Below are positions 21,001 to 64,000 of a DNA stretch of 64,000 nucleotides, piece by piece. A program made the position numbers. Where the stretch lies: assembly GCF_048403405.1 (NCBI RefSeq), contig NZ_CP183129.1; one strand, given 5' to 3'. Numbering within the stretch: the stretch's first letter is position 1; every line of letters begins with the position of its first letter. The stretch is from Escherichia coli. Its GTDB lineage: Bacteria; Pseudomonadota; Gammaproteobacteria; Enterobacterales; Enterobacteriaceae.

Positions 21001-24000
21001 GTACAGCATGAACTGGCTGGACGGGTTCGCCGATCCGGCGCTGGCTCAGCAGCTGTATACCCGGTCGTTTCCGTTAGTGGATTTGAGTGTGCTCAGTGAT
21101 GAGGAAATCCTGACACACAAGGGTATTGCCCTGCTGGAGCTGGTTCAGAAACATATTCGGACCCGCGACGGTTTAATGGCGGTATTGCCGATAATCGCGC
21201 AGATAATTAACTCGCAACACAATACGGTTGACCAGGTGAGGAGTGTGATAGAATATATTGCCTATCAGGGGTATATTCTGGATGAATCCCGCTTTTTCAG
21301 CCAATTGATTGCACTGTCACCGGAGTATAAAACGATGCTGACAACGATTGCAGAACAACTTGAGCAAAAAGGTATCGAAAAAGGTATCGAAAAAGGTATC
21401 GAAAAAGGTATCGAAAAAGGTATCGAAAAAGGTATTGGCCTGGGTGTTGAAAAAGTCGCCCGCTCATTATTACAACAGGGGGTTGATCTGAACATTATTA
21501 TGCAATGTACCGGACTGACCCGGGAAAAGATTGAGTCATTAAAACATTAATCTTTTCTGTTTTTACTCTCAAATGCCGGCATGACTGCCGGCATTTTTTA
21601 TGCCCGCCGTTTTCTTTTTTTTTCGGAAAACTAATTTCTCATTGAGAGCACTTGCTTTTCTGCGCACAGTGTGCCTGTGACTTTATTTTATTAACACAGG
21701 ACAGAAAATGCGTATGAAAATTCTCCCGATATGTCTTGCCCTGACCTCACTGCTGTTGGGGGGCTGTGCAGATAAACCCTCCCGGCCTGCTGAACCGGTG
21801 GCTGATAGATACCGCGATTCTGGTCAACACCGGTCATGCCCAGCCGGTACTTCCGGACCTTTATCCATCAGCTGGGGCTGGTACAGTTACTGCCGGTGGG
21901 CGGACGTTATCAGGGGCGTACGGTGACGTTGCGCCTACCATAAAAGAGATGCCGTGATGAAAAACATAAGATTTGTGGTTTTACTGAGCGGGTGTCTGAT
22001 GACAGCGCCGCTGACAGCCACACAGTCTGTTTCCGGGGGGCAGATTGGCAGATTGAGGCGGGGAAATCGGCTAAGAGTCAGACTCAGTCATTGCAGTATG
22101 AGGCGCAGGAATGGGGACTGAGTGCGGAGGAGTATGCCCGTTTTGAAGCGCTGATGAAAGGGTGGCGCGGTATTCAGTCTCTCGGCCTGGATCCTCTGAC
22201 GACACTGGGCATTGAGGCCCGGTCAGATGAGGAGCGCTGTCGGCTGGCTGAAAAGTGGGTACAGCAGGAATTTGCCTGGGCAGAAAAAGAGCTGGCGTTT
22301 CAGCGGGAAGTGGATGCAGCCTAGAAACGGCTTTATGGTCAGATATTATCGGTCAGTCTGGGAACAGCCGGCTGAATCCGGTCTGTATTCTTTTTATTTA
22401 AATCAATTACACCTGTTAATCGATTAATAATATTAGTCGGAATAACTTTATCTTTATTAATAATAGCGAATACAGGCTGTCCAAAGCTATTTTGTTCAAT
22501 AAAATCGAGCCTTCCATCTTGAATATTATCAAGTGAAATAATAATTGCGGCAATATAAGAGAAGTCAGTATGTAGAATATTAACATATTTACGATGAGTT
22601 GAAATAGAGTCAGACATATCATAGCTGACTGCGACTTTATAATTTTTCATTTTTAATTCCTTTTTGGTAAAAAATCTTGCTGAAATATTAAGTGAAAATA
22701 TTTCATTTATTTATATTTATGTCATCACGGATATAAAATAATGTTATAGGTTGGTGGCTTTTATAATTTTAGTAATCTTTTTTTTAGCAAAATGACTAGG
22801 AATAAAAGCTGTTTAGCTGCACATTACTGTGCATAAAAACCAAGGATATGAATGTTCAATAAGAGCTCGTTATAACCACATTAAATGTGATATATAATGA
22901 TAAAGAGATTGACTATCCATTTGATGAAAATATGCAAACCACGTGATAGAAGCCAATAGAGAGATTATCTTTGAGCGCTGAAAAGATTAAAACTAAAACA
23001 TGAGAAATGTGAAAGCATCATTATATGTGTAATAAGTTTTATATGTGGTCAAAATCGGTTATTATTTTCTATTTTTGCATTCATTAATTGTTAAGGTATA
23101 TATAACAACTATAAGTTATATGTAATTAAATATCCGAATTATACTGTGATGCAGATCAAGGTATATCATTTAAAGAATGATTTTTCTTTAATTCATATAT
23201 TTGTTTTTTGTTATTTGTTGTTTTCTTTTTAACAAAAGAATAGGTGATTAATATAGTCGCCAAGTCTATGTTATAAATATTAATACAATGTATTTATGGT
23301 GCCTTTCCTATAATTAAAGATTATAAATTATTATCATTAATGGTTGCATTAATATATATTTATTTTCTAAATAATTATTTTAAAGTTTTTTAAATTTGCT
23401 TATATAGTCATTAAGATTAATAAAATATACTTTGAAATATATTCTGTATTACCTATTCCCTTCTATATCAATATAAATGAGTTTTACAATCAGTATAAAT
23501 TGTTAAAAATGATCGTTAAAAACGATTGTTATGTTTATATTGATGGTTTTAATCTATCAAAAAAATACATTATCGATCAATAATAACATATTAACATAAT
23601 TTATTTTTAGAAAGAAAATTATATCCATTAATTATATTTTAATTACATGAGGTTACATTTTAATAAATAATAAGTTTGTAATTTCAAATAAAGCTTCCGT
23701 ATTTTTCATGTTGGTGAATGTTATTAATTTTTTATTAAATAATGGCGTTTATATTTAATAATTTTAATAGAGTAGCACCTGTTTTTTATAGTTTTAATAT
23801 ATAAATTAAGGATATAAATACCCTCAATGAAGTTTATAGATTGATTTTTATGTTAGTAACCAAATAATGAAATTTAAAAATAATATTGCTTTAAGTACGG
23901 TACTGTCTGTTGCTATTTTTAACTCAGCAATGGCATATGACGGTACAATTAGTCTTACTGGATGCACTACTGGACAAAATGGATCTAGTAATGTGAAAGC

Positions 24001-63000: not shown

Positions 63001-64000
63001 AAGCAGGTGATGATTGACCCTGTGAGGCTATAGCCTGAAGGAAACCCATGTTAAAAAACTACCTCTTACTCACCACAAGTAAAGAGGAAATAACATGGGT
63101 TTATACAGAAGTTCATCACATGTGTATTGACGTTGCAAATATCATCTAGTTTGGACTCCTAAATATCGTTATAATATATTGAAAGATAAAGTAGGAAAAG
63201 AGCTTTATAGAATAATTTATATTCTCTGCATTATGAAAGACTGTGAAGTATTGGTGCTAAATGTTCAGCCAGACCATGCTTATTTAGTTGTAATGATCCC
63301 ACCTAAACTATCAATATCAACACTAATGGGAGTCCTGAAAGGACGTAGTACGATAAGGTTATATAATCGATTTCCACATATACGTAAGAAACTTTGGGGT
63401 AATCATTTTTGGGCTAGGGGATATTTTGCTGATACGGTGGGGGTTAATGAAGTCATCATTAGGCGTTATGTAAGGCATCAGGATAAAGTTGATCAAGAGC
63501 TCGACCAACAAATGGAATTGTTGGGGGATTAATAAAGAATATAGCCCCCTTATAGGGGGCCCAATTTAAAACCACCTCTTTTAGAGGCGGTATTTTACAC
63601 CCGCCGTTTTCTTTTTTTTCGGAAAACTAATTTCCTATTGAGAGCGCTTGCTTTTCTGCGCACAGTGTGCCTGTGACTTTATTTTGTTAACTCAGGACAG
63701 AAAATGCGTATGAAAACTCTCCCGATATGTCTTGCCCTGACCTCACTGTTGTTGGGGGGCTGTGCAGACAAGCCAGCCCAGCCTACGGAAGCGGCGGCAG
63801 ACATCGCGATTCCGCTCAACGTCGGTTATGCTCAGCCGCTGCTCCCAGATATTTATCCGTCAGCCCCGGAAGTGGTGCGTTATGACCGTTACCGGCTGGT
63901 TGATATTTCGCCTTCACAGGCACAGCGTTACCCGCTGGAACAAATTGTTCATCTGCGTATTCCTGCTTCCGTCTCCCCGACAGTCGGGGATGCGCTACAT

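Follow-up and report, generated by a model that had tools for sequence, protein, structure and literature searches.

The 64,000-nt stretch of Escherichia coli DNA analysed here (RefSeq assembly GCF_048403405.1, contig NZ_CP183129.1; hereafter the window) holds the left two-thirds of ICEPm1, an integrative and conjugative element (ICE), integrated at pheV of the E. coli chromosome. ICEPm1 of Proteus mirabilis HI4320 is said to have been described by Flannery, Mody and Mobley in 2009. In the window, a 42-kb block lies between two direct repeats of the 5' end of pilL, which we call copy A (left) and copy B (right). The block is the already described accessory region of ICEPm1, consisting of a pseudogene-rich 'degenerate region' and the nrp iron-acquisition module. 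Sequence comparison suggests that copy A was left as a scar when diverged ICEs recombined, and that it does not mark an insertion or a target-site or in-situ duplication. The best explanation overall is that diverged ICE lineages were joined by one ancient recombination, to which we assign a probability of roughly 0.7. The element and its accessory region are known, and the feature adds detail to an element already well described without amounting to a new kind of system; what appears to be new is the anatomy of the left remnant with its affinity to the related element ICEPm2, and a set of candidate recombinant joints. Neither PMC11278526 nor PMC11026637 mentions the pilL'-TIGR03759' remnant that borders the degenerate region on the left, or its closeness to ICEPm2.

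An initial annotation of the window had reported repeats of about 180 bp with 92% identity, and a global alignment of 21603-21785 with 63600-63780 gave 169/183 matches (92.3%). A repeat search of the window recovered the pair as 195 ungapped nt at 90% identity (21611-21805 and 63607-63801). Only one other direct repeat longer than 100 nt was found in the 64 kb (D3, likewise derived from ICE backbone), so the pair stands far above chance. The repeat spans about 105 nt upstream of pilL and the lipoprotein signal peptide, and in both copies the protein starts MRMK(I/T)LPICLALTSLLLGGC..., with the ATG at 21708 in copy A and 63704 in copy B. The signal-peptide codons are therefore present as first annotated; the accompanying 'promoter' stays an assumption, because a sigma-70 scan upstream of pilL found no consensus promoter in either copy.

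The homology extends beyond these ~180 bp. Since the partners of its later segments lie past the end of the window, its full extent is not visible from the window alone. Copy A was dissected by comparing it (blastn) with the intact genes of E. coli M24, which carries the same element and supplied the sequence past the window end and its RefSeq annotation, and of E. coli M19, which carries ICEPm2. This revealed that copy A (21596-22372) is a 0.78-kb wreck of three conjugation genes and that copy B opens an intact 220-amino-acid PilL2, in line with the frameshifted remnants and intact gene first noted at the left and right copies, respectively.

21596..21872, + strand: copy A, segment 1 (seg1), pilL upstream region and first ~165 nt of pilL; identity 87.5% with copy B, 95.2% with ICEPm2
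21862..21915, + strand: copy A, segment 2 (seg2), tail of a gene for a 246-amino-acid hypothetical protein, from blastn against M24 and M19
21904..22372, + strand: copy A, segment 3 (seg3), codons 1-140 of a TIGR03759-family gene; 90.5% nucleotide identity to the intact gene
63593..64000, + strand: copy B, pilL upstream region (63593-63703) and intact pilL2 (ATG 63704), which exits the window

In copy A, pilL is frameshifted by a 4-nt insertion (GATA, 21804-21807) and its homology ends at 21872. About 1.1 kb is deleted between seg1 and seg2, comprising the remainder of pilL and most of the hypothetical gene. Seg3 has a frameshift near codon 28, a stop at 22322-22324 and a truncation at ~22372, and its codons 33-140 have 92% amino acid identity to the intact TIGR03759 gene. 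On its left, copy A is contiguous with the Rpn-family nuclease gene rpn, with 94.4% identity to M19 over 1296 nt spanning rpn into pilL. On its right, it is fused without any insertion sequence (IS) element to DNA of ~30% GC that opens with a speFL-speF fragment. In the full element, copy B pilL2 is followed by the hypothetical gene, TIGR03759, SLT, DUF2859, traD and the remaining conjugation module.

The two copies are 9.5-12.5% diverged (87.5% identity in seg1 and 90.5% in seg3), and copy A is closer to ICEPm2 (95.2% and 92.6%). Neighbour-joining trees of six lineages were built with 1000 bootstraps for seg1 and seg3 separately. Copy A grouped with ICEPm2 in both segments, and ICEPm2 was its nearest neighbour in 993/1000 (seg1) and 976/1000 (seg3) replicates. 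In a second tree set, with three metagenome lineages (L027, L030 and L032) added and L020 dropped, copy B was nearest to A in 0/1000 (seg1) and 3/1000 (seg3) replicates, and was the farthest from A in seg1. Across both sets, B was nearest to A in 0-23 of 1000 bootstraps. The copies are thus not each other's closest relatives, as a target or in-situ duplication would have them, and the duplication at this site proposed in the initial annotation is not borne out. The divergence of the copies and the proximity of A to ICEPm2 suggest that they come from different ICE lineages. Furthermore, ICEPm1 copies of different genera are only ~0.1% apart, which argues that an A-B divergence more than tenfold larger did not arise within ICEPm1.

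The backbone of the element is itself a mosaic. From traD to TIGR03750, ICEPm1 is 96-99% identical to a P. mirabilis relative (L016), compared with 84-94% for ICEPm2; for its topoisomerase gene, an E. coli relative (L017) is the closest match. Such strongly mosaic backbones suggest that inter-ICE recombination is routine in the ICEPm1/ICEPm2 group. SXT/R391 ICEs recombine through conserved backbone genes, largely by RecA, yielding mosaic elements (Garriss, Waldor & Burrus 2009; PMC2786100). Like ICEPm1, they hold accessory DNA between conserved modules; unlike ICEPm1, they belong to another ICE family, have their own Bet/Exo genes and have hotspots with many alternative cargos. A decayed duplicate fragment of backbone is no described feature of SXT/R391 elements and is present in ICEPm1. 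That its accessory block is bounded by the fossil of a second conjugation module suggests that ICEPm1 arose by inter-ICE fusion or module replacement and not by simple insertion.

We infer the order and mechanism of the founding event as follows. An ICE with an ICEPm2-like junction would have recombined once, anciently, with a related but diverged ICE or ICE fragment. On the left, TIGR03759 codon 140 would have been joined illegitimately to AT-rich foreign DNA, and on the right a complete pilL-to-integrase module would have been supplied behind an IS200 element. The redundant left copy would then have decayed, and the structure would have been inherited almost clonally since. Several points weigh against this account. 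The founding event is not reconstructable, with no attachment (att) remnant in the cargo, no cargo donor, and distances among A, B and ICEPm2 that are near a star. Free of constraint, copy A accumulates changes that inflate its distances, and the pilL 5' end of copy B is an outlier, 85-90% identical to every other lineage. The A-B divergence could therefore partly reflect later import into copy B instead of separate origins.

Relatives that lack the block exist. The initial annotation had taken the block for accessory DNA, and it indeed lies at the boundary of two modules: the replication module, closed by rpn, is on its left, and the conjugation module, opened by pilL, is on its right. Its suggested check, for relatives with a single pilL 5' region and no block, was positive for ICEPm2 (M19) and for at least eight further lineages. 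The M19 element runs rpn, pilL, hypothetical gene, TIGR03759, SLT, traD without an insert, and this arrangement with a single copy is also that of 12 further complete E. coli genomes. One pilL 5' region and no block were also found in L016 (P. mirabilis, PilL 78% identical), in E. coli (L017-19), in the three metagenome lineages and in distant Serratia-type and other relatives (L035-41); in these elements pilL directly follows either rpn or the gene for single-stranded DNA-binding protein (SSB) with small genes. The interval from the STY4534-family gene to pilL differs in the distant relatives by no more than one to three small genes, those for SSB, Rpn and a DUF4160/DUF2442 pair. ICEPm2 (P. 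mirabilis BL95; E. coli M19, CP010221) and ICEPm3 share the core backbone (~92-94% nucleotide identity) and the att site with ICEPm1, and have rpn directly followed by a single pilL-hypothetical-TIGR03759-SLT-traD array with no cargo there. Unlike ICEPm1, they hold their cargo (contact-dependent inhibition (CDI) and phenazine genes) between the conjugation and integration modules. The published accounts agree: ICEPm1's iron-acquisition module and its degenerate module sit between the DNA replication and conjugation modules, and ICEPm2 (BL95; CP010221) is without both (PMC11278526).

Among the sampled lineages, large cargo at the rpn/pilL junction occurs only in ICEPm1 and is always the same, which suggests that the junction is no family-wide hotspot, contrary to the first reading of it. 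A hotspot in the SXT/R391 sense holds different cargo at the same junction, and this was not the case in ICEPm2, L016, L017-19, L027, L030, L032, L035-39 or L040-41. No alternative cargo between the same flanks was seen among the sampled elements, and no donor element carrying the cargo was found.

An unlikely alternative is that two related ICEs lay head to tail at pheV and were fused by an internal deletion from TIGR03759 of the left element to upstream of pilL in the right one, trapping accessory DNA between them. Tandem ICEPm1/ICEPm3 arrays have been reported from P. mirabilis AR379 (PMC11278526), tandem arrays yield hybrid ICEs in the SXT/R391 family (PMC2786100), and the cargo holds fragments of both distal (ArdC') and proximal (ClbS', DUF2857') ICE genes. 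However, no second att copy was found within the window or inside the cargo, which leaves such an accretion and deletion possible without direct support. The ArdC' fragment has only 30-48% amino acid identity to the resident ArdC, and DUF2857' has no detectable similarity to the resident DUF2857, which suggests that these fragments derive from distant elements and not from a close tandem partner. When the cargo DNA was compared with ICEPm1, ICEPm2, L016 and L017, the ClbS' fragment was the sole backbone remnant to emerge, so a simple model with a close tandem partner is not supported. This fragment (32916-33179) contains the clbS 3' end and downstream sequence and forms a direct repeat with resident 14975-15239 (80.6% nucleotide identity, 18 kb apart, same orientation). 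In addition, the order and orientation of the fragments do not fit a simple deletion.

The repeats were also considered as substrates for recombination today. Their longest perfect A/B runs on the + strand are 62 nt (22085-22146), 36 nt (22241-22276) and 34 nt (22278-22311) in seg3, and 39 nt (21651-21689) and 31 nt (21722-21752) in seg1. These are enough for RecA at low efficiency. With ~90% homology broken up into identical stretches of 20-62 nt, RecA could at best make weak use of the repeats for deletion or gene conversion. All 13 complete E. coli copies of ICEPm1 keep both repeats and the cargo, and all have the standard copy B sequence. The exact Rpn protein is listed in 731 blocks, and in each of the 25 contigs read it was followed by the copy A remnant and then the same cargo, at 99.8-99.97% identity.

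Several assemblies nevertheless contain switch-like joints. A 4.6-kb contig from a short-read assembly (L042) has the architecture of a cargo deletion: DUF3577, rpn and the A remnant are followed by a B-type TIGR03759 3' half, SLT, DUF2859 and traD, with the switch inside the 62-nt run. In an 18.5-kb contig (L033, coverage 5) and an independent Logan contig (L034), the switch is inside the 36-nt run, with 32/32 upstream diagnostic sites A-type and all downstream sites B-type. A third type (L043, coverage 2.8) has the architecture of a conversion, with nrpX', receptor, IS200, B-left, the A remnant and B-right, and a switch in the 34-nt run. Finally, a PilL2 T5I variant in 15 draft or metagenome contigs has a copy B in which three sites in a row are A-type, all of them lying between the 39-nt run and the 31-nt run. 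All of these joints come from short-read draft or metagenome assemblies, several at 2.8-5x, as against none in the 13 complete genomes. In a metagenome scan, one of two ICEPm1 matches was hybrid, versus none among the isolates examined. PilL hybrids predicted from crossovers downstream of codon 25 were absent from a collection of 15 billion proteins. Every switch falls in a stretch that A and B share exactly, and it is at such stretches that de Bruijn assemblers mis-join contigs or pop bubbles, so chimeras are expected there. That at least some of the hybrid contigs are real is possible, at somewhat less than even odds, and it is a tentative suggestion that, in natural populations, recombination still acts on the diverged repeats.

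If so, the repeats give a concrete route by which virulence cargo could be lost. Through crossovers in seg3, the entire 42 kb of nrp and degenerate DNA would go, along with pilL and the hypothetical gene (as in L042), and conversion would copy the dead left copy into the working one (as in L043, L033 and the PilL2 T5I patch). ICEPm1 would continually spawn cargo-less, transfer-defective derivatives, with the siderophore module lost as a unit. Because a seg3 crossover removes pilL and the hypothetical gene and leaves a frameshifted TIGR03759, judging by gene content such derivatives are probably unable to transfer.

L042 and L033 were also considered as representatives of a pre-cargo ancestor and rejected. 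Their TIGR03759 is B-type where the left copy of ICEPm1 is A-type (22147-22372), and they already carry the frameshifts and deletion, which are sensible only with a second working copy present.

The initial annotation had the cargo inserted, with duplication, at a hotspot upstream of pilL, the repeats forming a cassette boundary for deletion or exchange. The cargo-less relatives with one pilL 5' region, the identical runs of up to 62 nt, which exceed the RecA minimum, the exactly predicted joints in L042, L033/34 and L043, and the A-type patches of the PilL2 T5I variants are all as this scheme expects. We nonetheless consider it improbable, given the divergence of the copies and the grouping of A with ICEPm2. 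The left copy reaches 0.78 kb into a third gene and ends in an illegitimate join, which is no target duplication, and neither large cargo in another sampled lineage nor alternative cargo between these flanks was seen. Recombinants were absent from the 13 complete genomes and the 25 other contigs, and the hybrids are all from low-coverage short-read assemblies. An ancient in-situ duplication of pilL-TIGR03759 (e.g., by unequal sister-strand exchange), in which the dead copy diverged and later imports blurred the kinship, would account for two copies in the same orientation in one element, and pseudogenes evolve fast and patches of a mosaic backbone could be overwritten, but it is very improbable. 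In both segments, ICEPm2, L027, L030 and L032 are all closer relatives of A than B is. With only ~0.1% separating ICEPm1 copies, a divergence of 10% could have built up only if the duplication were older than the split from ICEPm2, which has no second copy.

A further hybrid pilL was found in an ICEPm1 variant represented by ENA contig ERZ28666827 (L025) and Logan contig SRR22877746 (L026). Here pilL is in the copy B context (IS200 upstream) and has a ~165-bp patch resembling copy A and ICEPm2, encoding an intact hybrid protein (P0010). The L025 patch has 24 differences from B, of which 20 are shared with A and two only with A. A direct A-to-B conversion was considered as its source, but with three private changes in the patch and without the 4-nt insertion of copy A, the donor is uncertain.

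The 39-nt run upstream of pilL, CTTGCTTTTCTGCGCACAGTGTGCCTGTGACTTTATTTT (21651-21689 and 63646-63684), does not vary among seven ICE lineages that show 85-95% similarity elsewhere. It holds an inverted repeat, CACAG-N5-CTGTG, has no sigma-70 consensus nearby and is kept in the dead copy A. By its conservation, this block is probably the true site of control for the conjugation module.

The identity of the element rests on its integration site, its near-identity to known copies and its module order. The left boundary and the backbone up to the junction are as follows.

7245..7295: attL of the ICE, a 51-bp copy of the tRNA-Phe (pheV) 3' end; 100% match to the tRNA-Phe 3' end at the far end of the element in M24
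7357..21550, + strand: ICEPm1 replication/partition module, from the RefSeq annotation of the identical M24 stretch
20603..21550, + strand: rpn, the final backbone gene before the junction

At the far end of the identical M24 element, an intact tRNA-Phe adjoins the ICE integrase. ICEPm1 integrates in the tRNA-Phe 3' end with ~52-bp direct repeats, and the copy here is exact over 51 bp. The continuation in M24 comprises pilL2, TIGR037xx conjugation genes, traD, taaP, ardC, traI and the integrase, so that the ICEPm1 markers taaP, the nrp genes and the tRNA-Phe att repeat were all found. The nrp and degenerate modules are between the replication and conjugation modules, and taaP is inside the conjugation module. 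The genes for self-transmissibility (those of the integrase, the relaxase and the type IV secretion machinery) are present in M24 and intact by annotation. Across 13 complete E. coli genomes, the junction region (20600-24600) matches at 99.2-100% identity (100.0% in M24, where the genes on either side of the match are those of the window). Identity extends across core and accessory modules to P. mirabilis: strain ATCC 29906 (L004) is 99.90% identical to the window over 10.3 kb and 99.87% identical to the continuation over 20.7 kb. Providencia stuartii NCTC11800 carries the same DNA at 99.8-99.9% identity. ICEPm1 is known from Proteus, Providencia, Morganella and E. coli. A search of a plasmid collection with the junction region gave no match, and a scan of genome contigs with PilL2 gave two loci only, both ICEPm1. 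The element here is the same as ICEPm1 of P. mirabilis HI4320, with which it shares the att site, the replication, conjugation and integration modules, the nrp operon, taaP and the degenerate region; it differs in that its host is E. coli and that it adjoins an older pap/IS-rich island.

The ICE sits between pheV and this island (window 1-7300), which is IS-rich and encodes a separate P4-type integrase (5782-7047, - strand). The first 5.8 kb of the island (IS66/ISEc22, phosphoethanolamine transferase) are 100% identical in many E. coli strains, including ATCC 25922, and M24 has a pap fimbrial island in the place of the IS-rich one.

ICEs of the PFGI-1, ICEclc, PAPI-1, SPI-7 and ICEHin1056 type share with ICEPm1 the TIGR037xx set, PilL2, TraD and TraI, as well as SPI-7-type DnaB and STY4528/STY4534-family genes (RefSeq names in ICEPm1). 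Unlike them, ICEPm1 has only a gene for a PilL N-terminal-domain lipoprotein and no full pil operon. The replication/partition module encodes ParA, SPI-7-type DnaB, ParB, DUF2857, ParE-like, STY4528-family, ClbS, AcaB-like, topoisomerase III, STY4534/DUF3577 and Rpn proteins, and block by block it is 91-97% identical to ICEPm2 and other lineages. A terminator hairpin (21574-21599) follows rpn.

The interior of the block contains the following features, assigned for the nrp module from open reading frames and RefSeq names.

22373..36200: 'degenerate region' of ICEPm1
22339-23042, - strand: speF'/speFL fragment
23867-25400: fimbrial remnants
26178-26555: transposase fragment
26826-31299, + strand: two intact TonB-dependent receptors
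31861-32639: ArdC pseudogene
32916-33179: ClbS' fragment
33417-34550, - strand: IS110
34782-35644, - strand: IS3 remnant
35665-36060, - strand: DUF2857' and AlpA
37213..62937: nrp siderophore module
37213-60776, - strand: nrpG-B-A-T-U-S-R-Y-X
60949-62937, + strand: divergent TonB-dependent receptor of the nrp module
63095..63592, + strand: IS200/IS605-family tnpA pseudogene and hairpin-rich right end, abutting copy B

The description of everything between the repeats as AT-rich cargo holds in part: the stretch from 32 to 36 kb has 46-49% GC and consists of IS elements and ICE-gene fragments, so that the interior is not uniformly AT-rich. A degenerate region with distant ICE-gene fragments and IS110, IS3 and IS200 elements fits a history of repeated inter-ICE events. 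'Degenerate region' is an established module name (PMC11026637; PMC11278526). The siderophore gene order in the window is that of the published nrp layout (PMI2596-2605), in which nrpX to nrpG are divergent from the receptor gene PMI2596 (PMC11026637). Through this module, ICEPm1 spreads a siderophore system that aids urinary-tract-infection fitness among Proteus, Providencia, Morganella, Klebsiella and E. coli.

The fragment that meets copy A is from the inducible ornithine decarboxylase locus and comprises the speFL leader peptide and the first ~100 codons of speF, at ~30% GC. speF' is fused head-on to TIGR03759 codon 140, and its reading frame continues into ICE-derived sequence to a chance stop.

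Short repeats were seen at several places in the backbone. Within rpn, a 12-bp tandem repeat, GGTATCGAAAAA, is present in six copies (21366-21437) and encodes KGIE repeats, the number of which varies by lineage to give an Rpn of 311, 315 or 323 amino acids. Between the topoisomerase III and STY4534/DUF3577 genes (19784-19925) are three tandem copies of a 47-48-bp unit, 68-100% alike. Finally, a palindromic 15-mer, GTTTCC-NNN-GGAAAC, forms arrays with a 36-bp period in several ICE intergenic regions: after the STY4528-family gene and before the AcaB-like gene, traD and ardC. The sites are at 14801-14917 and 15716 in the window, at 15363-15413, 41848, 43549 and 45025 in L003, and at 6675-7085 and 16733-17251 in L002. 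There are 2-3 copies per site in ICEPm1, versus 12 and 15 in ICEPm2, and from their form the arrays look like an operator or iteron family of variable copy number.

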